A program made the position numbers and the translations under genes. 64,000 bases of DNA. It comes from an uncultured delta proteobacterium. Lineage in GTDB: Bacteria; Desulfobacterota; Binatia; Binatales; Binataceae. A model generated the notes under the pieces. The model did not search any database, had not been told where the DNA came from, and worked only from the letters and a program-made list of their open reading frames with translations. Below are positions 26,265 to 38,631 of this stretch, in pieces (the first letter of the stretch is position 1; each line of letters starts with the position of its first letter). The stretch spans positions 141,572 through 205,571 of the forward strand of contig CAVOUW010000001.1 in the NCBI GenBank assembly GCA_963699705.1. Reading direction: 5' to 3'.

Positions 26265-26450
26265 CTAATGTGAAACCCGCGGTGGGTTTCACGCTTCCTT
26301 CGGCAGGGGTGACCCCTGCACCAAGTGAGAGAAATTTCTGTTCCCCCTTTCCCTCGGGAAAGGGGGTGAGGGGGATAGGACGGGCGGAATGGTTGCCTCA
26401 ATCCGGTTCCCCTTCCCTCGAGGGAAGGGGTTAGGGGTTAGGTTGCCGGG
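26265..26450. repeat. composite mosaic repeat (modules C-B-A, forward)
   Basis: C is TGAAACCCGCGGTGGGTTTCA-cg-CTTCCTTCGGCAGGGGTGACCCCTGCACC. B is GTTCCCCCTTTCC-ctc-GGGAAAGGGGGTGAGGGGGATAGGAC. A is CCGGTTCCCCTTCCC-tcga-GGGAAGGGGTTAGGGGTTAGGTT. Confidence 0.88.
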
Positions 26451-26463
26451 AATCGACAGCCAT

Positions 26464-27198
26464 ATGATGATGCACTCAATGACCACCACCGACATTACCT
26501 TCCCCTCCCACGACGGGCGCCCGATGCGCGCTGCTTACGCCGCGCCCTCCGATTCGCAGAAACATCCCGGCGTTATCGTTATCCACGAAATCTTCGGGCT
26601 CAATGACGACATCAGGCGAATTACCGGGAGGGTTGCCGATCTTGGCTACGCCGCACTCGCGCCTGACCTCTATGATCGCGACGGCGCGCGCCTCATCTGT
26701 ATCGCGCGCACGATGATGACGCTGAATCGCGGCGATGGCGACGCGTTCAAGGACCTCGACGCGGCGCGCAGGTTTCTGCAGCAGCAGCCGGGCGTCGATT
26801 CGGCGCGTATCGGCGTCATCGGATTTTGCATGGGCGGCGGATTCGCGCTGATGTTCGCGGCGCGCGCTCCAATCGGCGTTGCCGCGACGTTCTACGGCGA
26901 CGTGCCCAAGACCACTGATCAATTGCGCGGCGTATGCCCGGTGCTCGGCGGCTACGGCGGACAGGACCGGCTATTCGTTGCGCAGGGACGCCGTCTCGAG
27001 ACGCTGCTTACTGAGATGGATGTCGATCACGACGTGAAAATCTACGACGATGCCGGCCACAGCTTCATGAGCCGTAACAGCGGTTTCTTGCCATGGATCG
27101 GGAAAATCGGCCCGATGAAGGCCGGCTACAATCCCGAGGCCGCCGAAGACAGTTGGAAGCGAATCGAAGCGTTCTTCGGCCGCCACCTCGGGCATTGA
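26464..27198 (+). CDS. dienelactone hydrolase family protein
   Basis: The start is proposed at MMMHSMTT. It has the Cys nucleophile elbow GFCMGGGFAL and the DLH fold. The first 25 codons of the track ORF are a read-through of repeat module A. Confidence 0.85.
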   Translation: MMMHSMTTTDITFPSHDGRPMRAAYAAPSDSQKHPGVIVIHEIFGLNDDIRRITGRVADLGYAALAPDLYDRDGARLICIARTMMTLNRGDGDAFKDLDAARRFLQQQPGVDSARIGVIGFCMGGGFALMFAARAPIGVAATFYGDVPKTTDQLRGVCPVLGGYGGQDRLFVAQGRRLETLLTEMDVDHDVKIYDDAGHSFMSRNSGFLPWIGKIGPMKAGYNPEAAEDSWKRIEAFFGRHLGH

Positions 27199-27206
27199 GG
27201 GAGGTG

Positions 27207-27455
27207 CTACTTACTCAAACCAACGGCGAGCCGGGATTTCGCGATCCGCTCGCGTGAGGCTACCAGCGCTTCCACGTTCTTGGCGCCGCGATAGCCCATC
27301 TGATCGGCAAGGTATTCGGCCAGCTTGCGTTCCGAGATATTCGGCTTCTGTTTGCGTTTGTCTTCGGCCAGCTCGGCGAGCGTAGTCCGCAGGGTATCTT
27401 CGGAGTCCCGCAGCGTCTCCAAAATCGGGGAAGGAATCACAGAATTTATCGGCAT
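27207..27455 (-). CDS. hypothetical small protein
   Basis: 82 aa from MPINSVIPSPILETLRDSEDTLRTTLAELAEDKRKQK.... It is a charged, helical-looking ORF with no recognisable family. Confidence 0.4.
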   Translation of the reverse strand: MPINSVIPSPILETLRDSEDTLRTTLAELAEDKRKQKPNISERKLAEYLADQMGYRGAKNVEALVASRERIAKSRLAVGLSK

Positions 27456-27644
27456 GCCATCACCTATGCTGCTAATCGTAGCATAATGCGTGAAAACTCG
27501 TGCATGCCGTAAGTCAAATGAATGCCCCAAGAATTCGTGAAACTTTCGGTTCCCTCAGCAACATTTTAGTGCGGATGAGCTTGCGTCAGCCAGCCGAAGG
27601 TGATTTGACGCGCTCACTATTACCAAGCATTGTGCTTTGCGACT

Positions 27645-30287
27645 ATGTCGCGATTCAGCCGCCTCGAATTCCTCGCGTCCCTACCGTTATGCGTACTGAG
27701 TGTTGCGATGATATTTCTCTCCTCGTGCGGTAACGACGGCAGTTCCGCAACGTCTGAGACCGCCGGCGCGTGCGCGCCGCTGCCACCCGCCGCCAATTCA
27801 GATTTCCTGGTTCATCTGACTCCCTTCATGAACCACCTTTGCTACCAGAAACAGAACTGGCAGCATGACGCGCAGGTGCGCACCAGCGACGGAGTTCATC
27901 CATACGTCAGGGTCTGGTACTCGCCGTTGCTGTTCGACTGGATCACCGTCAAGAACCGCACCGGGCCAGTGCCCGACGGCGCGATGGTCGTCAAGGAGCA
28001 GTTTCACAGCCCAACCGATCCGTTGGTCGAATGGACCGTGATGGTCAAAGATTCGAACCTGTCGTGGGACGGATGGTACTGGGCCGACCTGGTCAGTCCG
28101 ACACCGCGGAATCCGAATGCGGTTCCGACTCCGTCGCCGGGCAGTGGATGCGCCGAGCCGCAGGTCTTTTTCAACGGCGTTGGATTGTACTGCCTGAACT
28201 GTCATGCGTCGGCGATCGCCAATTCGGGAACCTATTCGAGTACTGCTTACCTGAATCCACCGAGCGTCGCCGCGCTCGCGGATGCCTCGGCGATGATCGA
28301 TGACATGCACAACGTTTCGTCGCGGCAGTCGGCGGAGATGTCCGCGGCCGAGCAAGCTCCGATGTTCGTCAATCGCGTACCGAATTCGGTTTTCAGCAAT
28401 CTTCGATCTTTGCCGTCCGCCTCGCCGCCGTGCATGGTCTCGCAAGCATTCGATCACGTGGTCCCGGCCGCGAAGTCGGCCGGCGGCCCCGAGGAGTTTC
28501 TCACCTCTGATCAATGCGCGAACTGTCACGATGCGACCGGGACGCTCGCCGGCTTCATCCCCAACATGATCTTCGGCGGGCAGAGTCCGACGCCCGCAAA
28601 CCTCTCGCAGTTCGGCGAATGGCGTTACTCGATGATGGGCCTGGCGGGACGCGACCCGATCTTCTTTGCCCAGCTCGAGACTGAGTCAACAGTGCATGGG
28701 CATTTGGCCGGCCACGCTGACGGCGCAGCTTTCGTTCAGGACTTCTGTCTTCGATGCCACGGCGTGATGGGTCAGCGTCAATTTCATATCGATAATGGCA
28801 ACGGGCCGAACACTTTGCTCACGCGCGCCGTGCTGCAGGATCCCAAATCCAAATACGGCGCACTCGCGCGCGACGGCGTCTCATGCGCGGTCTGCCATCA
28901 TATGACCGACGATAAACTTGCCGACCCGTCCACCGACACCGGCCTGTTCAAGGTTGGCCCCGCGAGCGAAGTTTACGGACCGTTCCCATCGGACACTGAT
29001 TCCACCGGCGCGAAGACCGGCGACAGCGTCATCCCGCTACCGATGCAGAACAGTATGGGCATCACGCCGATGGAAGGTTCCCAGGTCCAGAACGCCAGCC
29101 TGTGCGCGTCGTGCCACACGATCTTGTTGCCGGTGTTCGACGCCGACGGCAATCGGGTGATGGAAAACGGTGAGCCGAAATCCGAGTATGAGCAGACCAC
29201 TTTCTTCGAATGGCTGAATAGCGGCTTCATTACTATTCCGTGCCAGCAATGCCACATGCCCGACAGCTACCAGGGCAATCCGCTGCAATTCAAAATCGCG
29301 AATATCGAGGACGATACATTCCCCGCTGTGCCGGACCATGGACCATCGACGCGCCTGCCCGACGCCGATCTGATTATGGAAGCGCGCACTCCGTATCGGC
29401 GTCATCAACTGCTCGGGATCAACCTGTTCGCACTCGAGATGTTCGATCAGTTCCGCGCCGAGCTCGGGCTTTTCAAATTCGATCCGAACTTGCCCGGTCC
29501 TTTGGCCAAGCAGATCTTCAGCCAGAAGACCGCGGTCGCCGAAGCTGTGACGCAAGCCCAGACCGGCACCGCCAACGTCATGATTCTGTCGGCGACGAAA
29601 ATGAGCGGCGCGCTGCAGGCGGACGTCGAGGTGGATAATCTCGCGGGTCATAACTTTCCCTCTGGAGTGAGTTTTCGACGCGCGTTCTTGAACTTTCAGG
29701 TGCTCGACGCCGGTGGAAACGTGCTGTGGGCATCGGGCAATACCAACTCCGACGGCGTCATCGTCGACAACTCGGGCAATCCGCTAGCTACCGAATTCTT
29801 CAGCCCGGCTCAGCAGACCTATCAACCTCATTTCTGGACGGAGAATCCAATCACCAGCGACAACCAGGTCGCGATCTACGAAGAACTGGCGACCGATCCT
29901 GAAGGCCTGCTGACGACCAGCTTTTTAAGTCTCGACCACAAGGTCAAAGACAACCGCATTCAGCCTGTGGGAAGATCGTTCAACGGCCCCAACGCCGGCA
30001 TCACGGCTCCGGTAGGCACCGGCGCCGACCCCAGCTACAAAAACGGATGCGGCTGCAGCATGGTCCGCTACGAAATCCCGCTACCCACCAACGCCGTCGC
30101 AGTGAATGCGACGCTGTACTATCAAAGCATCCCGCCCTACTACCTACGCCAACGCTCCGAAGACGCCCACGGCCCCGACACCGCGCGCCTGATCACCTTC
30201 ACAAACCAACTAAACACCAGCCAGTACCCAGAAATCGCCAACTGGAAACTGAAAATCGCGACTTCAGGACCGGTGAATATCCGATAG
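27645..30287 (+). CDS. lipoprotein multihaem c-type cytochrome (at least 6 CxxCH)
   Basis: ~880 aa. It has a signal peptide with lipobox (MSRFSRLEFLASLPLCVLSVAMIFLSSCGN). The CxxCH motifs are CLNCH, CANCH, CLRCH, CAVCH, CASCH and CQQCH. Confidence 0.85.
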   Translation: MSRFSRLEFLASLPLCVLSVAMIFLSSCGNDGSSATSETAGACAPLPPAANSDFLVHLTPFMNHLCYQKQNWQHDAQVRTSDGVHPYVRVWYSPLLFDWITVKNRTGPVPDGAMVVKEQFHSPTDPLVEWTVMVKDSNLSWDGWYWADLVSPTPRNPNAVPTPSPGSGCAEPQVFFNGVGLYCLNCHASAIANSGTYSSTAYLNPPSVAALADASAMIDDMHNVSSRQSAEMSAAEQAPMFVNRVPNSVFSNLRSLPSASPPCMVSQAFDHVVPAAKSAGGPEEFLTSDQCANCHDATGTLAGFIPNMIFGGQSPTPANLSQFGEWRYSMMGLAGRDPIFFAQLETESTVHGHLAGHADGAAFVQDFCLRCHGVMGQRQFHIDNGNGPNTLLTRAVLQDPKSKYGALARDGVSCAVCHHMTDDKLADPSTDTGLFKVGPASEVYGPFPSDTDSTGAKTGDSVIPLPMQNSMGITPMEGSQVQNASLCASCHTILLPVFDADGNRVMENGEPKSEYEQTTFFEWLNSGFITIPCQQCHMPDSYQGNPLQFKIANIEDDTFPAVPDHGPSTRLPDADLIMEARTPYRRHQLLGINLFALEMFDQFRAELGLFKFDPNLPGPLAKQIFSQKTAVAEAVTQAQTGTANVMILSATKMSGALQADVEVDNLAGHNFPSGVSFRRAFLNFQVLDAGGNVLWASGNTNSDGVIVDNSGNPLATEFFSPAQQTYQPHFWTENPITSDNQVAIYEELATDPEGLLTTSFLSLDHKVKDNRIQPVGRSFNGPNAGITAPVGTGADPSYKNGCGCSMVRYEIPLPTNAVAVNATLYYQSIPPYYLRQRSEDAHGPDTARLITFTNQLNTSQYPEIANWKLKIATSGPVNIR

Positions 30288-30296
30288 TTTCGTAGT

Positions 30297-30515
30297 CTAG
30301 CTCTGCGGATCCTTCAGATGAGGGCGGGTCGCGTAGAAGTAATCCATGCCGGGGACGCCGCGCGGGGTTTCGTCGTCGAACAGGATTGAGACTACGCCGT
30401 AGAATGCGACGATGGTCCAGAAGGCGCCGGTGCCGATTGGAGGAATCGCTGCGGCCGTTGCGCTGAGTATCAGCGCCACGATCGAGTTTTGCAGTAGCCA
30501 GAGTTCATTCATCGG
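30297..30515 (-). CDS. small membrane protein (two predicted TM helices)
   Basis: MNELWLLQNSIVALILSATAAAIPPIGTGAFWTIVAFYGVVSILFDDETPRG.... A GGAG lies 9 nt upstream of the ATG. Confidence 0.55.
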   Translation of the reverse strand, partial: PMNELWLLQNSIVALILSATAAAIPPIGTGAFWTIVAFYGVVSILFDDETPRGVPGMDYFYATRPHLKDPQS

Positions 30516-30655
30516 TATCGCTCCAGATGAAGAACCGGTACCGGCTTCGCTTCCGCGAAGCTGTCCGGAGCCCAGCAGCCATGTCCTGCCGCTCGCGTTG
30601 CTCGCTTCGTCAGGATGACATGCGGCGCATGCATATCGCGAGGGGTGTCGTCTGA

Positions 30656-31441
30656 CTACTCTCCGGTCCAGTTTGGTTTTCGCTTTTGCGAGAATGCCAG
30701 CGGGCCCTCGACTGCGTCTTTCGATCTGAACAGCTTCGACTGCAAATCGTAATGCTTGGCAAGCGCTTCCTGGATCGGCAGCCCGAGGCCGGTCATCGCT
30801 GCCTCCTTGGAGGCTTGGACCGACAGCGGGGAGCATTCCATGATCTCACCGGCCCATTTTTCAGCCGTTGGGATCAGATCCTTCAACGGCACCACCTCGT
30901 TCGCGATTCCGTAGCGGAGCGCGTCGGCCGCTGTGATGTGTTTGCCCGTGAGCATCATGCCCATCGCGATCTTCAGCGGGATCTGGCGCGGCAGGCGATG
31001 TACGCCGCCCGCTGCGGCCATCAGGCCGACGCGCGGTTCCGGCAATCCGAAGCGCGCGTGCTCGGCAGCTATGATGATGTCGCATGAGAGCGCGATTTCG
31101 AATCCGCCGCCGAGCGCGAACCCGTTCACCGCCGCGATTATCGGCTTGTAGATGTCGTAGCGCGCGGTAATTCCGGCAAAGCCGCCCTTGCCGCGAATCG
31201 ACTTCTCCAGCTCGCCGCGATTCTCCGCGGTCCAGCGCAGATCGTTACCGGCCGAGAAGCCCTTGTCGCCCGCGCCGGTGACGATCGCGACCCAGGCAGA
31301 TTTGTCCGCGACGAAATCGTCCCACACGCTGTCCATCTCGACGTGACATGGCGGATGCAACGCGTTCATCCGCTCAGGCCGGTTGAAAGTGATGTAGGCG
31401 ATATGGTTGCGCTTCTCGTATTTGATGAATTTAAGGTCCAT
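30656..31441 (-). CDS. enoyl-CoA hydratase/isomerase family protein
   Basis: 261 aa. HIAYITFNRPERMNAL...AAVNGFALGGGFEIALSCDIIIA. Confidence 0.88.
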   Translation of the reverse strand: MDLKFIKYEKRNHIAYITFNRPERMNALHPPCHVEMDSVWDDFVADKSAWVAIVTGAGDKGFSAGNDLRWTAENRGELEKSIRGKGGFAGITARYDIYKPIIAAVNGFALGGGFEIALSCDIIIAAEHARFGLPEPRVGLMAAAGGVHRLPRQIPLKIAMGMMLTGKHITAADALRYGIANEVVPLKDLIPTAEKWAGEIMECSPLSVQASKEAAMTGLGLPIQEALAKHYDLQSKLFRSKDAVEGPLAFSQKRKPNWTGE

Positions 31442-32565: not shown

Positions 32566-34281
32566 ATGGCGACCGCGCGCAAGAGTTTCGAGGCAATTCT
32601 GCTCGACCGATCATGGGTCTCGGCCCAGGATCTTGACAAGGCGCGGCAGCGTAAAAAGCCCGGACAGGAATTGGCCGACGTGCTGGTCGAGATGGGTGCG
32701 CTGGAGCCCCAACGCCTCGCACGCGCACTCGCGCAGGAATATCGGCTGCCATTCCAGGCCCATATCGACGAAAACGCGCTCGATCCCAAGCTCGTTTCCA
32801 AGGTTCCGATCAACTACGCGAAGAAGAACCGCCTGCTGCCGCTCTCGAGCATCGACGGCACGGTGACTATTGCGATGGCCGATCCGGCCAACTTCGAGCC
32901 GCTCGACGATTTGCGAATCCTGTTCGGCGCGCAGATAAATGTGCTGATCGCGCCGGCCGAAGTAATCGCCGAGGCGATCAACCGCGCGTACGACCAGGCG
33001 TCGGCCACTTCAGCCGAGGATCTGATGATCGATCTGCAAGAAGAGCGGCTCGACGTGGTCGCCAACGAACTCGCATCGGAGCCGCTGGACTTGCTCGAGT
33101 CCGACGATTCGGCGCCGATCATCAAGCTCGTCAACGGCGTGCTGTCGCAGGCGGTCAAGGATCGCGCGTCGGACATCCACGTCGAAGTTTTCGAAAAAGA
33201 AATGGTGGTGCGCTTCCGCGTGGACGGCATGATGTACGACGTGCTGTCGCCGCCCAAGCGGTTTCAGCCCGCGATCACCTCGCGCGTCAAAGTTATGGCG
33301 GGCCTCAATATCGCCGAGAAGCGGCTGCCGCAGGACGGCAGAATCCGCCTGCGCATCGCCGGCCGCGATATCGACTTGCGCGTCTCGTCGATCCCGACCG
33401 CGTTCGGCGAGCGTATCGTGCTGCGACTGCTCGACCGCGCGCAGGCCGTGGAAGCCATCAACCTCGACCATCTCGGTTTTTCGGGAGACAATCTTCAGCG
33501 GCTCGATCGCTTAATCCGGCAGAGTCACGGGATCATCCTGGCGACCGGGCCGACCGGCTCGGGCAAATCGACGACGCTGTACGCGTGCCTGACCAGAATC
33601 AACTCGCCTGAAAAAAATATCATCACGATCGAAGATCCGATCGAGTACCAGTTGCGCGGCGTCGGCCAGATGCAAGTGAATCCGAAGATCGAGCTGACCT
33701 TCGCCAGCGGCCTTCGCTCGATACTGCGCCAGGATCCCGACGTGATCATGGTCGGCGAAATCCGCGACAGCGAAACCGCCGAAATCGCAATCCAGGCCGC
33801 GCTCACCGGCCATCTGGTATTCTCGACGCTCCACACTAACGACTCGTTCGGCGCGGTGACGCGCCTGGTCGATATGGGAATCGAGCCGTTCCTGGTTTCG
33901 TCGTCGATTCTCGCCGTGCTCGCACAGCGCCTGGTCCGCAAGCTCTGCGTCGATTGCCGCGAGCCTTACAAGGCCAGCGAAACCGAGCTCGCGCGAATCG
34001 GACTCAAGGGCGTCGATGCGGAGAACAAGATCTGCCGTCCCAAGGGATGCCGCAATTGCCGCAACACCGGCTATCGCGGCCGAATGGCGATCCAGGAACT
34101 GATGATCATGGACGACGAAATTCGCTCGCTCGTGATGCAGAACGCCGACGCCGCGACGCTGCGCCGCAAATGCACCAGCGTTGGGATGACGCTGCTGCGC
34201 CAGGACGGTGCGGCGCGCGTGTTGCGCGGCGAGACTTCGATCGAAGAGTTGCTGCGGGTCACGCAGGAAGACATCGACTAG
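32566..34281 (+). CDS. gspE: type II secretion system ATPase GspE
   Basis: 571 aa. It has the N1/N2 domains, Walker A GPTGSGKST, the Asp box and a tetra-Cys zinc motif (CVDC...CRNCRNTGYRGR). Confidence 0.9.
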   Translation: MATARKSFEAILLDRSWVSAQDLDKARQRKKPGQELADVLVEMGALEPQRLARALAQEYRLPFQAHIDENALDPKLVSKVPINYAKKNRLLPLSSIDGTVTIAMADPANFEPLDDLRILFGAQINVLIAPAEVIAEAINRAYDQASATSAEDLMIDLQEERLDVVANELASEPLDLLESDDSAPIIKLVNGVLSQAVKDRASDIHVEVFEKEMVVRFRVDGMMYDVLSPPKRFQPAITSRVKVMAGLNIAEKRLPQDGRIRLRIAGRDIDLRVSSIPTAFGERIVLRLLDRAQAVEAINLDHLGFSGDNLQRLDRLIRQSHGIILATGPTGSGKSTTLYACLTRINSPEKNIITIEDPIEYQLRGVGQMQVNPKIELTFASGLRSILRQDPDVIMVGEIRDSETAEIAIQAALTGHLVFSTLHTNDSFGAVTRLVDMGIEPFLVSSSILAVLAQRLVRKLCVDCREPYKASETELARIGLKGVDAENKICRPKGCRNCRNTGYRGRMAIQELMIMDDEIRSLVMQNADAATLRRKCTSVGMTLLRQDGAARVLRGETSIEELLRVTQEDID

Positions 34282-34305
34282 ATCCGCGTTTAAGTTTTTT
34301 CACCG

Positions 34306-35535
34306 ATGCCAGTATTTGCTTATCGAGGTCTTGGCGCCGACGGTCGCTCCGTCAACGGCGTAGTTGACGCCGACAGCGCGCGCACCGCACGCGGCAAGTT
34401 GCGCGCGTCGGGGATTTTTCCGACCGACCTCAACGAGGAGTCCAACGCCGCGCAACGCTCGGCCGCCAAGCGCGAGTGGCTGCCCTCGCTCTGGCGGCGC
34501 AAGATGCCGGCCTCGGATCTCGCGCTGCTGACGCGGCAGTTGAGCGCGTTGCTCGGCGCGGGCGTGCAGCTGGTCGATGCGCTCAGCGCGCTCGCCGATC
34601 AATCGTCGCGCGCCGCGACCAAGCGGATGCTCTCTCAAGTGCGCGAGCGCGTGCGCGAGGGCTCGTCGCTGGCCGACGCGCTGACCAATCATCGCGACGT
34701 CTTTTCAGACCTCTACATCGGGATGGTGCGTGCCGGCGAGCAGGCTGCCGCGCTCGAGGCCGTTCTTGATCGGCTGGCCGAGTACAGCGAGCGCCAGAAT
34801 GAATTCGTAACCAAGGTTCGCGGCGCGCTGACCTATCCGATCATCATGATGTGCGTCGGCACCGGAATCATGGCGTTCCTGGTGGCGTACGTGGTGCCGC
34901 AGGTCGCGACGATTTTCCAGCAGCAACATGCCGCCTTGCCCTTGGCGACGCGAATCCTGATCACCTTTTCCGGTCTCGTCACCGGCTACTGGATTCCGCT
35001 TGGCCTGCTGCTGGTCGGTATCGTCGCAGGATTCACCGCCGCGATGGCGACGCCGCGCGGCCGCCGCATCTACGACACCGCGATCCTGAAGGTGTATTAC
35101 ATCGGCCCGACCATGATTCGAATTATCTGCGCCCGCTTCGCACGGACGCTCGCAACTCTGCTCGCCAGCGGCGTCCAGTTGCTTCCCTCGCTCGACGCGG
35201 TCAAAGGCGTGGTGACCAACGGTCTGCTCAAGGACGCCGTCGAGCAGAGCCGCGAAAGTATCCGCGAGGGCCACGGCATGGCGCAGACGCTCGCGCGCAG
35301 CGGTCTTTTTCCGCCGCTGCTGATCGAGATGATCCGCGTTGGCGAGCGTTCCGGCGAACTTGAGCGGATGCTCGAGCGGGTCGCCGACAACTACGAGCGC
35401 GAAGTCTCGCACTCGCTCAGCCAGATGACCACCGTGCTCGAACCGGTGATGACGCTGGCGATGGCCGCTGTTATCGTGTTCATGATGCTTGCGGTGCTGA
35501 TGCCAATCTTCCAGCTCAACCAGTTGATGCAATGA
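34306..35535 (+). CDS. gspF: type II secretion system inner-membrane platform protein GspF
   Basis: 409 aa. Duplicated GspF domains are present (LLGAGVQLVDAL..., ...LLASGVQLLPSL...) with 3 TM segments. Confidence 0.9.
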   Translation: MPVFAYRGLGADGRSVNGVVDADSARTARGKLRASGIFPTDLNEESNAAQRSAAKREWLPSLWRRKMPASDLALLTRQLSALLGAGVQLVDALSALADQSSRAATKRMLSQVRERVREGSSLADALTNHRDVFSDLYIGMVRAGEQAAALEAVLDRLAEYSERQNEFVTKVRGALTYPIIMMCVGTGIMAFLVAYVVPQVATIFQQQHAALPLATRILITFSGLVTGYWIPLGLLLVGIVAGFTAAMATPRGRRIYDTAILKVYYIGPTMIRIICARFARTLATLLASGVQLLPSLDAVKGVVTNGLLKDAVEQSRESIREGHGMAQTLARSGLFPPLLIEMIRVGERSGELERMLERVADNYEREVSHSLSQMTTVLEPVMTLAMAAVIVFMMLAVLMPIFQLNQLMQ

Positions 35536-35573
35536 TGAATGAAAAAGTGAAAAATGCGCCGGAGGTAACTGCG

Positions 35574-36003
35574 ATGAAATCACGCCGATACAATCAGGAT
35601 GGTTTCACCCTGATTGAAATCATGGTGGTCATCCTCATCCTCGGCCTGCTCGCGACCATCGTCGTCCAGAGCCTTCGCGGCGCCGCCGACAAGGCCAAGA
35701 CGCACCAAGGCGCAGGCCGACATGGCCGAGCTCAAGACCGCACTCGATCGTTACTACCTCGACAACGGCTTCTACCCGACCACCGACCAGGGCTTGAGTT
35801 CGCTGGTTTCGCCGCCGAGCAGCGGACGCACGCCCGCCAACTACGAGGCTGGCGGTTACATCGAGCGCCTGCCGACGGATCCATGGGGCAATCAGTACTT
35901 CTACCAGAGCGATGGGAACTCCTACGCGCTGAAGTCGTTCGGCAAAGGCGGCACCGAAAGCCAGGACACTTCGGGCGTTATAGACGCCAGCCAATCGAAT
36001 TGA
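35574..36003 (+). pseudogene. gspG: major pseudopilin GspG, split by a +1 frameshift near 35700 (or an assembly indel)
   Basis: Frame 1 gives the prepilin N-terminus MKSRRYNQDGFTLIEIMVVILILGLLATIVVQSLRGAADKAKTHQ... and then becomes Arg-rich nonsense. Frame 2 (track ORF 35614..36003) gives ...KAQADMAELKTALDRYYLDNGFYPTTDQGLSSLV...GGYIERLPTDPWGNQYFYQS.... This matches the GspG body. Deleting one C in CACCAAGG rejoins them as ...ADKAKTHKAQADMAELK.... Confidence 0.8.
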
Positions 36004-36015
36004 CGGCGTTATGAA

Positions 36016-36612
36016 GTGGAGCCCGACTCAGCTTGCCCGTGCTCCATCGCGATCGCGCGCGAGCGGCGAGTCAATTTCGTGACATCCGTATCGCCCGGCT
36101 TCACGCTGCTCGAACTCGCGGTCGTGATTTTTATCATGGGCCTGATGCTGACCTTGGCGCTGCCGTATCTCGGTGGATTCCGCCAGGCGGCGCTGAAAAG
36201 CCAGGCGCGCCGGCTCGCGGGACGCGCGACTTACATGTACGACGAGGCTACCGGCCACAAACTCGTGCTGCGGCTCATCTTCGATATGGACAACAACGGC
36301 TACGCGGTCGCGCAACTCGATCCCTATGCGGTCAAGCCGGTGTTCGCGCCTGACAACAGCATGTCGGGACACCCGGTGATGTTGCCGGCGGCGATTCGGA
36401 TTCGCGACGTCACTGTCGAGGGCATCGGCACCGTCAATCGCGGCACTACCGCGACCACTTTTTATCCCGAGGGTTACGTCGATGCGACCGTGGTCCATCT
36501 CGAGGACGCATCCGGCGACGTGATGACGCTCGAAATTTCTCCGCTGACCGGCCAGGTGGCAATTATCAACGGCGACGTGATGCCCACGGGAATGCAGGTG
36601 ACCCCAAGGTGA
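36016..36612 (+). CDS. gspH: minor pseudopilin GspH
   Basis: It has the prepilin-type N-terminus GFTLLELAVVIFIMGLML. The real start is probably an internal GTG just before it. Confidence 0.75.
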   Translation: MEPDSACPCSIAIARERRVNFVTSVSPGFTLLELAVVIFIMGLMLTLALPYLGGFRQAALKSQARRLAGRATYMYDEATGHKLVLRLIFDMDNNGYAVAQLDPYAVKPVFAPDNSMSGHPVMLPAAIRIRDVTVEGIGTVNRGTTATTFYPEGYVDATVVHLEDASGDVMTLEISPLTGQVAIINGDVMPTGMQVTPR

Positions 36613-37019
36613 ATCTGCTTCGCCGCGCGCCAGGATTTACCCTGCTAGAAGTGATGGTCGCGATTGCGATCCTCGGGATCGCGCTGCTCGGCCTGCTCGG
36701 GCTGCATCATCAGAGCCTGCAATCGGTGATCCGCGCGCAGCAATCGACCCGCGCCTCGATGCTCGCGCAGGCCGTCATGACCGAAGCTGAGCTCGAGCGA
36801 TATCCGGATCTCGGCCGCAGTAGCGGCGATTTCGAATCTTCCTTCCCCCGCGAGTTCCCGGATTTCCGGTGGGAGCGCGAGGTGGCCGCATCTGGGATGT
36901 TTCCCGACGTGCGCAAGGTCAAGGTCGTGATTCGCTACGGTCCGAAGCTTTTGCAGAGCTTCTCGCTGGTCGAGTTCATGCACTCGCCGGTGCCGCCCGA
37001 TCCGAATGAGCTCCAATGA
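36609..37019 (+). CDS. gspI: minor pseudopilin GspI
   Basis: MNLLRRAPGFTLLEVMVAIAILGIALLGL. It is 136 aa and shares a 4-nt overlap with gspH. Confidence 0.8.
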   Translation: MNLLRRAPGFTLLEVMVAIAILGIALLGLLGLHHQSLQSVIRAQQSTRASMLAQAVMTEAELERYPDLGRSSGDFESSFPREFPDFRWEREVAASGMFPDVRKVKVVIRYGPKLLQSFSLVEFMHSPVPPDPNELQ

Positions 37020-37690
37020 CCAACCAACGAAAACGCATCGCCACGCATCGCGCGCCACGCGGCTTCACCCTCATCGAGATGATGCTCGCGATTGGCGTGA
37101 TGGCGCTGATCCTCGCGATGCTGGCCAGCTCGTTCAGCACCATCGCGCATAGCAAGGTGCACGCCGAAGGACGGCTGATGGTCGATCGCGAAGGACGCGC
37201 CCTGCTCTGGCAACTTACCAAGGAACTGCGCAACGCGGTGCAGACTCCGTATACCGCCAGCAACGTCGCGCTGTTCGGCGCCGGACACATGGCCGGCGGC
37301 GCGGCGGTCGATACACTCACGCTGTCCACCTTCAGCGGCGGCCATCGACGCGCACTCACCGGGATGACGCCCGAGACGATAGTTACTTACAATCTGACCG
37401 CGAATCCCGACCAACAGGGTTGGTTCGTGCTGAATCGCTCGCAGCAAAGTGGATTGCTGACCAGCAACGCCACGCCGCAAACAACGGTGCTCGCGGACAA
37501 TATACTCTCGCTTCATTTTCGCTATTTCGACGGCCAGAAGTGGGGCGAGAGTTGGGAGTCGCCCAGTCAGCCGCGCGGACGGCAGTTGCCGGTCGCAGTG
37601 GCGGTCCAGATTCAGATGGCAGCGCCCGGCGGCCGCGTGATGGACTTCGCGACCCAGGTCACCCTGCCAATGGCAATACAGCAATGGTAA
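37016..37690 (+). CDS. gspJ: minor pseudopilin GspJ
   Basis: RGFTLIEMMLAIGVMALILAML. It is 224 aa and shares a 4-nt overlap with gspI. Confidence 0.8.
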   Translation: MTNQRKRIATHRAPRGFTLIEMMLAIGVMALILAMLASSFSTIAHSKVHAEGRLMVDREGRALLWQLTKELRNAVQTPYTASNVALFGAGHMAGGAAVDTLTLSTFSGGHRRALTGMTPETIVTYNLTANPDQQGWFVLNRSQQSGLLTSNATPQTTVLADNILSLHFRYFDGQKWGESWESPSQPRGRQLPVAVAVQIQMAAPGGRVMDFATQVTLPMAIQQW

Positions 37691-38631
37691 AGCAGCTGCG
37701 AAAGAACGAGCGCGGCGTCGCGCTGCTGGCGGTTCTGCTCGGAATCGCGCTGATGACGTTGATCGTCGTGGACTTCGCCCTGACCTCGGGACTCGGATTC
37801 GTGTCGGCGGCGAATCAGGCCAACGAACTGCGCGCCAGCTACCTCTCGCGCTCGGCGGTCAATATCGGTCTCGCCCTGTTGGCGGCGGACGCGCGCGCGG
37901 ACACCAAGACGCCGACTCCGATCGACGCCTTGACCGACGTGTGGGCGGTGCCGTTCCCGCCGATGCCGCTGGAGGGCGGCACTGTCTCGTTGTCGATTGT
38001 GGATGAAGGGCGCAAGATCAATCTCAACGCGATGGTCCAGAACGGTCAGCCCAATCTGCCTGCGATCCAGAAGGTGCAGCGGCTGTTCACCATACTCGAC
38101 GTGAAACCCGAGCTGGTTCAAGGTATCATCGACTGGATCACGCCGAACAATGGCACCGGGCTTGGCGGCGGAATCGGGGATTACTACGCGGGATTAAAGC
38201 CGCCATATCAGCCGCGCTACGGCGCGATGCCGACGATTGGTGATTTGTCGATGGTGCAGGGATTCAACGAGGCAATTTTCAACCGGGTCAGCCCGTTTCT
38301 GACCGTGATGCCCGAGACCGCGGTCAACGCCAACACCGCCGCGCCGCAAGTGCTGGCCGCGCTGGAGCCGGAGTTGACCGAGGATCAGAAAATTGTGCTG
38401 GCGATAATCGACGCGCGCACGATTCGCCCGTTTACCCAGCCGACCGACATCGGAAACCTCCCGGACCTCGGTGAAATCGGACAGCGCCTTCAGAAGGACG
38501 TGATGATGCGCAGCCAATATTTTACGATTACCGGAACCGGCGTCTATGCGGGCGCGCGCAAAATCATTACCGCAACTTTCCATCGCGAGACCACCGGTAT
38601 CGGCACCCTCGCAGCTTGGCACGAAGACTAG
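37684..38631 (+). CDS. gspK: minor pseudopilin GspK
   Basis: ATG at 37684 (MVKQLRKNERGVALLAVLLGIALMTLIVVDF). It is ~315 aa with GspK-like helix-hairpin-helix-like regions. The track ORF begins upstream, inside gspJ. Confidence 0.8.
   Translation: MVKQLRKNERGVALLAVLLGIALMTLIVVDFALTSGLGFVSAANQANELRASYLSRSAVNIGLALLAADARADTKTPTPIDALTDVWAVPFPPMPLEGGTVSLSIVDEGRKINLNAMVQNGQPNLPAIQKVQRLFTILDVKPELVQGIIDWITPNNGTGLGGGIGDYYAGLKPPYQPRYGAMPTIGDLSMVQGFNEAIFNRVSPFLTVMPETAVNANTAAPQVLAALEPELTEDQKIVLAIIDARTIRPFTQPTDIGNLPDLGEIGQRLQKDVMMRSQYFTITGTGVYAGARKIITATFHRETTGIGTLAAWHED

Follow-up and report, generated by a model that had tools for sequence, protein, structure and literature searches.

A predicted stand-alone hexahaem cytochrome of Binataceae that joins a P460/c'-beta-fold domain to a PHC-type pentahaem module

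Introduction

Cytochromes P460 and c'-beta share a fold that a 2025 review regards as unique to these two families of small stand-alone haem proteins (PMC11928373). In cytochromes P460 a lysine is cross-linked to the haem (Lys70 in NeP460, Lys78 in McP460, Lys106 in NsP460), the corresponding residue of the c'-beta proteins being Phe or Met (PMC11928373, Table 2). Those P460 proteins that oxidise hydroxylamine (NH2OH) also carry a distal proton-accepting carboxylate, Glu96 in NeP460 and Asp102 in McP460; NsP460, with Ala at this position, is cross-linked yet inactive (PMC11928373). In this study we analysed a gene whose product appears to begin with a domain of this fold and continues with five further haem motifs. 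The gene lies in a 64,000-nucleotide (nt) stretch of DNA, hereafter the window, from an uncultured delta proteobacterium of the family Binataceae (GenBank assembly GCA_963699705.1, contig CAVOUW010000001.1, positions 141,572 to 205,571 of the forward strand). It had been singled out in a first-pass annotation made from the sequence alone.

The literature describes the multihaem cytochromes of the PHC family as a helical five-haem cap carried on an Ig-like beta-sandwich stem. Members include T. tepidum c552, Geobacter MccSep, ExtKL, Gsu2801, the sPHC and lPHC proteins of cable bacteria and PtdA, and some of the cable-bacteria proteins are fused to truncated haemoglobin (gas-binding) domains. 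A low potential has been reported for T. tepidum c552, together with a suggested role in sulfur metabolism. The Geobacter protein MccSep reduces polysulfide at an active site that lies at haem 2 and combines a Cys ligand with a selenocysteine (bioRxiv 10.1101/2025.11.18.688581); bis-His ligation is reported for four of its five haems. As to the Binataceae, members of this family possess pmoABC-type monooxygenases able to make hydroxylamine and have been reported to lack both hao and a PF16694 cytochrome P460 (PMC9938248; PMC8262859).

Results

Three modules in one polypeptide

The presence of a P460/c'-beta domain, a PHC pentahaem cap and an Ig-like domain in a single protein is well supported. 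The features of the gene are listed below, with the evidence for each in brackets (aa, amino acids; ORF, open reading frame; HMM, hidden Markov model; AF2, AlphaFold2; pLDDT, predicted local distance difference test score).

27645..30287, + strand: complete gene for an 880-aa hexahaem c-type cytochrome lipoprotein, stop codon at 30285-30287 (ORF list, six CxxCH motifs, an identical database protein, thousands of homologues)
27645..27728, + strand: predicted Sec signal peptide with lipobox L-S-S-C28, C28 predicted to be lipidated (sequence motif; equivalent lipoboxes in close Binataceae homologues)
27771..28244, + strand: N-terminal haem domain of predicted cytochrome P460/c'-beta fold, aa ~43-200 (profile, hhalign, Foldseek, PF16694 in the relative P0090, AF2)
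27993..27995, + strand: codon of K117, aligned with the haem-cross-linking lysine of cytochromes P460, McP460 Lys78 (alignments; K in 112/117)
28191..28205, + strand: haem 1 motif CLNCH, aa 183-187, at the C-terminal end of the P460-like domain (aligns with CMGCH of McP460; 100% conserved)
28245..28430, + strand: Ala/Ser/Pro-rich, poorly conserved linker, aa ~201-262 (pLDDT <50 for aa 206-258; low conservation)
28431..29324, + strand: pentahaem alpha-helical core, aa ~263-560 (CxxCH motifs; Foldseek and profile matches to 5ZE8)
28515-28529, 28746-28760, 28884-28898, 29103-29117 and 29241-29255, + strand: CxxCH motifs of the core (motif scan)
29325..30284, + strand: C-terminal region, aa ~561-880, with an Ig-like beta-sandwich from aa ~640 (alignment to 5ZE8; AF2 strands)
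29637-29687, + strand: invariant motif NLAGHNFPSGVSFRRAF, aa 665-681, which holds H669 (HMM alignment to 5ZE8 residues 291-338)

The kinship of the N-terminal domain reached significance only with a diverse domain profile, built from 33 N-domains and run with hmmsearch against the PDB. This profile matched McP460 (9HRK/6HIU) with E=4.7e-7 and 32.9 bits over 90 aligned positions extending through the haem motif, and gave lower scores with the M. capsulatus cytochrome c'-beta McCP-beta (6HIH, E~3e-3), with NsP460 of Nitrosomonas sp. AL212 (6AMG, E=0.014) and with NeP460 of N. europaea (E=0.02). The match to McP460 recurred with a full-length diverse profile (E=8.5e-8), and hhalign of the N-domain against the McP460 fragment returned a probability of 95%. 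Searches of the PDB with the single sequence, or with a profile of close homologues, missed P460 or left it below threshold (McP460 E~0.6). Scans of the window protein against Pfam and NCBIfam likewise gave only haem-motif-level matches, none reaching a Pfam threshold. In several relatives, PF16694 (cytochrome P460) aligns over nearly the whole profile, exceeding the gathering cut-off of 27 in P0090 (27.8 bits) and scoring near threshold in four others. As assessed from these matches, the N-domain is a member of the cytochrome P460/c'-beta superfamily.

The structural comparison proposed in the first-pass annotation, AlphaFold followed by Foldseek, was applied to the N-domain and to the full-length protein. 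Confidence of the AF2 model is good over aa 40-160 (pLDDT ~80-90), and a model of the N-domain by itself found as best PDB match the cytochrome c'-beta of Thermus thermophilus, 7EAD (probability 0.99, E=0.057; template modelling (TM) score 0.50 normalised to the target). The full-length model, with a mean pLDDT of 64 that rises in the N-domain and in parts of the haem core, had T. tepidum cytochrome c552 (5ZE8) as its sole significant PDB match (E=9.7e-9, probability 1.00; TM 0.59 normalised to the target). The remaining whole-model matches (Brr2, adenovirus knob, antibodies) were discarded as noise (E>0.08), and PDB matches to armadillo repeats as low-complexity artefacts (E>0.1).

Sequence profiles also recovered 5ZE8, with E=1e-6 and, when the diverse profile was used, E=4.7e-10. 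The strongest matching stretch, NLAGHNFPSGVSFRRAF...LW, marks the start of the Ig-like domain, for which the model has beta strands at aa 644-696 and 805-827. Within this domain lies a conserved insert of ~100 aa (aa ~700-800) that is poorly modelled, aa 715-772 forming, with aa 206-258 of the linker, the low-confidence stretches of the prediction. On profile and model evidence together, the core and the Ig-like region are a PHC-type pentahaem module. A weak local profile match to NrfA (E~0.01) covers aa 462-539, around haems 5-6.

Close homology to a well-characterised enzyme family, which according to the first-pass annotation would make the protein an ordinary one, did not emerge from the Pfam, NCBIfam or PDB profile searches. 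The literature that we searched held no description of a P460 domain fused to a multihaem module, of a hexahaem-P460 protein or of a Binatota cytochrome. Thus, the parts are known and the combination of P460-like and PHC modules is one that we did not find described; the novel architecture envisaged in the first-pass annotation holds for the combination and not for the modules, both of which have precedents.

Residues conserved around the haems

K117, within the sequence PDGAMVVKE, pairs with Lys78 of McP460 (PDGAILVK) in three independent alignments, and lysine occupies this position in 95% of the diverse members (112/117). Other conserved residues of the N-domain are H85 (98%), Y92 (100%), W144 (99%) and M133 (91%). 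As for the distal capping residue (Phe/Arg), the significant alignments begin after its loop; by eye, H85-P86-Y87 falls in the corresponding region.

In the remainder of the protein H587, H669, R678 and R679 are 100% conserved. H587 and H669 are the only invariant histidines among the distal-ligand candidates of the core, H729 being conserved at 81%, and four methionines (M308, M331, M467, M538) are conserved at 93-99%. The conserved methionines and the scarcity of invariant distal histidines suggest that several haems could be of the His/Met, higher-potential type. Apart from those of the motifs, the cysteines of the core lack family-wide conservation (2% of diverse members for each of C263, C802 and C804). 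Invariant residues without a role as ligands include R336, D337, E347, R409, E516, Q517, E522, R586, N593, R678, R679 and K768.

Six additional cysteines (C43, C66, C169, C263, C802, C804) show full or almost full conservation among relatives with identities of 53% or more; the codons of C66, C169, C263 and C802-C804 lie at nt ~27840, 28149, 28431 and 30048-30056. All except C43, which is retained in ~77% of diverse members, lack conservation in the wider family. We had considered the C802-G803-C804 motif, along with C66, C169 and C263, as a redox or metal site and dropped the idea for this lack of conservation; the extra cysteines probably form clade-specific disulfides.

Gene, export signal and haem motifs

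The ORF spans 27630/27645..30287 on the + strand and reads 880 aa from the ATG at 27645. We took this ATG as the start because a database protein of the same length (P0001, 880 aa) is 100% identical to the window protein and because the N-termini of close homologues, M(S/L/P)RFSR..., agree with it. The N-terminus, MSRFSRLEFLASLPLCVLSVAMIFLSS|C, combines a basic n-region and a hydrophobic core with the lipobox LSS|C28, and close Binataceae homologues have a lipobox at the same position (LCAC, FCAC or FCGC). The first-pass description of an ~880-aa protein with a lipobox signal peptide is thus borne out. In the wider family most members have type-I (cleavable) signal peptides, the lipobox being limited to a Binataceae subclade and a minority elsewhere. 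The family as a whole would therefore be periplasmic and soluble, and a lipid anchor was dropped as a family-wide feature.

The window protein contains exactly six CxxCH motifs (aa 183, 291, 368, 414, 487 and 533), as the first-pass annotation had counted, and all six are 100% conserved across 116 diverse relatives. At least one CxxCH arises in just 1.2% of composition-preserving shuffles of the protein. The non-canonical motifs that the same annotation had suggested looking for are absent, a motif scan of the window protein finding no CxxxCH, CxxxxCH or CxxCK. By these features the product is a six-haem protein, predicted to be exported and, in the Binataceae lineage of the window, lipid-anchored.

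A large family in soil bacteria

A word-indexed protein search with the window protein yielded 2,966 matches, and an exhaustive HMMER search of 1.84 billion cluster representatives (clusters at 50% identity) yielded 1,982 at E<=1e-3, 503 of them at E<=1e-30. Scanning one genome per species located at least 594 loci of the cytochrome family. The hosts are mainly Binataceae and Acidobacteriota. Most loci come from metagenome-assembled genomes (MAGs) of Binataceae, many of them labelled 'uncultured delta proteobacterium'; others come from Acidobacteriaceae, Bryobacteraceae, Pyrinomonadaceae, Thermoanaerobaculia and a few proteobacterial MAGs. One host, Acidobacteriaceae bacterium KBS 83, is in culture. 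The nearest relatives, at 79-92% identity, come from Candidatus Binatus/Binataceae. Public annotations for the family read 'hypothetical protein', 'mono/diheme cytochrome c family protein' or 'cytochrome c553'. Homology searches thus place the window cytochrome, which is not an orphan, in a large, unnamed and uncurated family of soil bacteria.

Exactly six CxxCH motifs are present in all full-length representatives (116/116), and almost all of these match the N-terminal domain profile; among the representatives at large, those without such a match are almost all truncated fragments. It follows that the six-haem layout is a stable, family-defining architecture rather than a sporadic fusion.

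Single MAGs may hold two members of the family (L006 and L027, L013 and L018, L026 and L032). In the first of these pairs identity to the window protein is 87% for L006 versus 59% for L027. Such pairs of unequal identity indicate that the family is paralogous within genomes. At L073:7001-9648 an orthologous cytochrome (75% identity by tblastn) is broken into three shorter ORFs and represents either a pseudogene or the product of assembly frameshift errors.

Gene neighbourhood

The window has a G+C content of ~60%. Towards the cytochrome the gene order reads S9-type alpha/beta hydrolase, HisI, HisG, glyoxalase-fold protein, enoyl-CoA hydratase, dienelactone hydrolase, 82-aa gene; beyond it come a convergent 71-aa gene, a second enoyl-CoA hydratase, a small lipoprotein and a type II secretion cluster. 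The remaining ORFs scanned in the window are housekeeping genes. The neighbours that enter the following discussion are:

26389-27198: dienelactone hydrolase, upstream of the cytochrome (Pfam)
27207..27455, - strand: 82-aa gene, divergent from the cytochrome (90-98% identical in 10 related loci; no Pfam match)
30297..30512, - strand: 71-aa gene, convergent, with two hydrophobic segments (conserved in 10 related loci, with 77-89% identity in 9)
30656-31441: enoyl-CoA hydratase of the crotonase family, downstream (Pfam)
32566-38631, + strand: type II secretion cluster with GspE, GspF, GspG, minor pseudopilins and GspK, 2 kb downstream (Pfam; syntenic in close relatives)

The 82-aa protein begins MPINSVIPSPILETLRDSEDTLRTTLAELAEDKRKQKPNISERKLAEYLADQMGY..., the mechanical ORF list having stretched its gene to 107 aa. 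From its identity over the 10 related loci this protein is more conserved than any neighbour. It sits beside the cytochrome in close relatives only and was not found next to distant members. The stop codons of the 71-aa gene and of the cytochrome are 9 nt apart; a 179-aa ORF of the mechanical list (30297-30836, - strand) was rejected as an over-extension of the 71-aa gene that overlaps the enoyl-CoA hydratase gene. Neither the 71-aa gene nor the type II secretion cluster is linked to the cytochrome elsewhere in the family.

No porin, cytochrome b, ccm, nitrogen-cycle or sulfur-cycle gene was found by Pfam among the 29 window ORFs scanned, ~35 smaller ORFs lying outside the scan. In this respect the stand-alone setting described in the first-pass annotation, with no adjacent porin, cytochrome b or maturation genes, is upheld, as is the small two-TM protein encoded downstream on the opposite strand, which corresponds to the conserved 71-aa ORF. 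Its picture of flanking hydrolases needed amending: a dienelactone hydrolase does lie upstream, though with the opposite-strand 82-aa gene in between, and the downstream enzyme is an enoyl-CoA hydratase.

We then called and clustered the ORFs of 79 loci. Beyond the syntenic block of the closest Binataceae no conserved partner gene appeared in this set, so that the search for homologues with known partners advocated in the first-pass annotation gave no recurring partner, and in none of the 79 loci was a porin linked to the cytochrome gene. Recurrent neighbours elsewhere (CoA-transferase, MacB/FtsX permease, bestrophin-like protein, ABC transporter, histidine kinase, cyclic-nucleotide-binding protein) have no common theme. 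Since the neighbourhood is not conserved, context gives no clue to function. The cyclic-nucleotide-binding-domain protein, of ~235 aa, is found in L076, L079, L080 and L083 (Pyrinomonadaceae and other Acidobacteriota); in the last three it is directly upstream of the cytochrome homologue and divergent from it, and it is the only recurrent neighbour of this clade.

A 614-aa GMC oxidoreductase gene accompanies the cytochrome in 4 of ~12 syntenic loci. It starts 4 nt past the cytochrome stop in L001 (10663-12504), L008 and L022, and in L009 it lies upstream, with 15 nt between its end and the start of the cytochrome. The window, in which the site would be ~30288-30296, lacks this gene, as does the vicinity of all distant members. 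The flavoprotein carries a twin-arginine signal with a lipobox (SRREFLRK...IAGC) and may be an occasional redox partner of the cytochrome.

Two loci from Binataceae/'Acidiferrales' MAGs (L013:2957-5686 and L016:6917-9526) differ from window positions 27207-30512 in a peculiar way. Their flanks share 90-97% identity with those of the window over HisG, the glyoxalase, both enoyl-CoA hydratases, the dienelactone hydrolase and the small genes of 82 and 71 aa. The cytochrome enclosed by the two small genes reaches only 64-66% and is inverted relative to the flanks. It looks as if a paralogue had replaced the resident gene, in the manner of a cassette, at a fixed site. Among orthologues in the same orientation, the cytochrome is 79-92% identical versus 90-99% for the enzyme-coding neighbours, only the 71-aa gene being as diverged (77-89%).

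Discussion

A possible oxidoreductase with a P460-like haem

The interpretation that we favour, while rating it slightly short of an even chance, is that the gene encodes a stand-alone periplasmic hexahaem oxidoreductase in which a P460-like haem 1 and a five-haem chain serve a small substrate of the N-oxide or hydroxylamine type. We consider it somewhat more likely than not that the protein catalyses a reaction and is no passive wire, in view of the many invariant charged residues that lie outside the haem sites. As to chemistry, the protein would bind hydroxylamine, NO or a related small N-oxide and oxidise or detoxify it, a proposal made by analogy which we regard as tentative and, on balance, doubtful. 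Hydroxylamine, NO or related small molecules are the most plausible substrates, being the ligands of all P460/c'-beta superfamily members characterised to our knowledge. In Binataceae, the pmoABC-type monooxygenases could supply hydroxylamine (PMC9938248; PMC8262859).

According to this scheme, Sec would export the protein, C28 would receive the lipid, and the cytochrome c maturation system would attach the six haems. Haem 1 (C183/C186/H187), probably five-coordinate, would be the site of small-molecule binding or catalysis, K117 sitting where P460 enzymes form the lysine-haem cross-link. A branched five-haem chain would conduct electrons to or from this site, with a soluble partner in the periplasm at its other end. 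The Ig-like domain (aa ~640-880) contributes the invariant histidine of the GHxxPxG motif, H669, and haems of the higher-potential His/Met type would suit delivery of electrons to an aerobic chain. If hydroxylamine were the substrate, another residue would replace the carboxylate of the P460 enzymes, for which the invariant H85 and Y92 can be named as speculative candidates. The reported lack of P460 in Binataceae would be explained by the domain escaping the Pfam threshold in this lineage.

A number of observations weigh against this interpretation. The carboxylate position needed for NH2OH oxidase activity is T131 in the window protein, and residues across the family at this position are Thr (54), Ala (41), Ser (7), Val (6) and Ile (2), which recalls the Ala of the cross-linked, inactive NsP460. 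Were H85 or M133 to act as sixth ligand, as either could, haem 1 would be an ordinary electron-transfer haem. Haem geometry is not readable from the AF2 models, which lack haems and average 64-66 in pLDDT. The family is abundant in Acidobacteriota without a known hydroxylamine source of their own, and gene context supports no substrate. Finally, the Tat-exported GMC flavoprotein encoded 4-15 nt away in four close orthologues points to a role as partner cytochrome.

Other explanations

This last point leads to an alternative that we judge unlikely, yet the most credible of those considered, in which the protein is an electron-transfer subunit or hub that takes electrons from periplasmic flavin or quinoprotein dehydrogenases, such as the GMC oxidoreductase, to the aerobic respiratory chain, the P460-like domain being merely a sixth redox centre. 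Beyond the tight spacing of the two genes, the twin-arginine signal and lipobox of the flavoprotein would place it in the same compartment as the cytochrome and on the same membrane anchor. His/Met haems, as suggested by the conserved methionines, are found in the partner cytochromes of periplasmic dehydrogenases, and a sixth ligand at haem 1 from H85 or M133 would fit as well. However, the GMC gene is missing from most of the ~12 syntenic loci, from the window and from the surroundings of distant members, and no other neighbour recurs across the 79 loci. Moreover, a length of 880 aa and dozens of charged residues that are invariant away from the haem sites are excessive for a wire, and the 95% conservation of lysine at the P460 cross-link position also speaks against a mere redox centre. 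Alternatively, the protein may be an enzyme whose active site lies in the PHC core, at the equivalent of MccSep haem 2, and acts on polysulfide, thiosulfate or another substrate, the P460-like domain providing electron entry or exit. We hold this to be quite improbable. It draws on the only solved relative of the core, T. tepidum c552 with its suggested role in sulfur metabolism, and on MccSep, which has the same cap-plus-stem architecture, is compared by its authors with T. tepidum c552 in structure and haems, and reduces polysulfide at haem 2. Having only two invariant non-motif histidines, the core would have room for an open or unusual coordination site, and poor modelling, as seen for the conserved insert at aa 700-800, is common in loops that contact ligands or haems. 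On the other hand, neither the haem-ligating Cys of MccSep nor its catalytic Sec/Cys has a counterpart, no non-motif cysteine of the core being conserved; the remaining axial positions can be occupied by the conserved methionines, and the hosts are mainly aerobic soil heterotrophs, not sulfur respirers.

Least credible, and in our estimate very improbable, is an outer-surface conduit like MtrC/OmcA that would use the type II secretion system encoded 2 kb downstream for its export and exchange electrons with minerals or humics. The lipobox has Gly at +2, the GspE/F/G...K genes are syntenic in close relatives, and PF22113 (MtrC/MtrF domain II/IV) weakly matches the eight relatives scanned, two of them above the 30-bit gathering cut-off (P0099, 33.4; P0093, 32.2) and the rest at 24-28 bits. 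These matches, however, span only haem-motif stretches, and the design of MtrC differs from six haems plus a P460-fold domain. Most members of the family have cleaved signal peptides and no lipobox; outside the syntenic block of Binataceae, the gene is not flanked by a type II secretion system, a porin or a periplasmic decahaem partner; and the invariant charged residues outside the haem motifs suit an enzyme better than a wire. The first-pass annotation had left the choice between an extracytoplasmic redox enzyme and an electron conduit: its extracytoplasmic, stand-alone part is retained, and the conduit is disfavoured by the signal peptides, by the lack of a linked porin in 79 loci and by the charged residues.

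Significance

The fusion itself is of interest whichever explanation applies. In ~2,000 sequence clusters the predicted P460 fold, with the position of the cross-link lysine kept, is permanently joined to a five-haem chain, and the protein, annotated only as 'hypothetical', comes from some of the most abundant soil phyla. Should haem 1 be a genuine P460 cofactor, it would represent a second, independent way to build an HAO-like enzyme and would make testable a published puzzle, namely how pmoABC-bearing Binataceae without hao or P460 handle hydroxylamine (PMC9938248). The boldest version of the favoured oxidoreductase, which we consider improbable, makes the family a widespread, so far unrecognised hydroxylamine/NO oxidoreductase of soil bacteria, which would combine a lysine-cross-linked P460 domain with a PHC pentahaem wire into a functional analogue of HAO. 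If true, the protein would be the 'missing' hydroxylamine-detoxifying enzyme of CuMMO-bearing Binataceae, and Acidobacteriota-rich soils would contain a biological source or sink of NO and N2O that has so far escaped the accounts. Even as a wire only, it would extend the PHC family to aerobic soil bacteria and to a pairing of domains that parallels the fusions with truncated haemoglobin in cable bacteria. A practical route to the study of the family is offered by Acidobacteriaceae bacterium KBS 83, which is in culture.

Comparison with known systems

With the P460/c'-beta superfamily the window N-domain has in common a beta-sheet fold, the motifs PDGAxxVK(E), MVKD and (G/D)GW, and a CxxCH at the C-terminal end of the domain. 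Its best sequence match is a true P460 rather than a c'-beta protein and, like P460 sensu stricto, it has a lysine at the cross-link position (K117), a putative adduct site. Known members are mono-haem, single-domain homodimers of ~135-195 aa (PMC11928373), whereas here the domain forms the first ~160 aa of an 880-aa hexahaem protein. The loop between GGW and CxxCH is ~16 residues longer in the window protein than in superfamily members, and the proton-relay carboxylate of the NH2OH-oxidising enzymes is replaced by T131.

With HAO the protein may share a design logic, that of one modified, ligand-binding P460-type haem feeding a chain of c-haems within one polypeptide. HAO has eight haems as opposed to six, gives no sequence or Pfam/NCBIfam match, and relies on a Tyr-haem link where the window protein has a candidate Lys-haem link as in cytochrome P460; the modules are unrelated. 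The weak local likeness to NrfA around haems 5-6 fits a packing core common to many multihaem enzymes. The CxxCK active-site motif of NrfA is absent from the window protein, there is no Pfam/NCBIfam match, and the overall architectures are unrelated.

The PHC cytochromes provide the closest parallel for the remainder of the protein. As in these proteins, five CxxCH motifs in a predicted helical cap are followed by an Ig-like beta-sandwich with GHxxP(T/S)G...FR. The window protein is about twice their size, owing to the extra P460-like haem domain at the N-terminus and an insert of ~100 aa in the C-terminal region. The catalytic Cys/Sec pair of MccSep has no counterpart in the window family, and the conserved methionines suggest His/Met haems, in contrast to the mostly bis-His haems of MccSep and the low-potential T. 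tepidum c552. The porin and Ext/Ptd gene clusters of PHC relatives are not found beside the 79 loci of the window family, and the hosts are aerobic soil bacteria, unlike those of other PHC systems. Nonetheless, the PHC family already includes both a catalytic member, MccSep, and fusions with a gas-binding haem domain.

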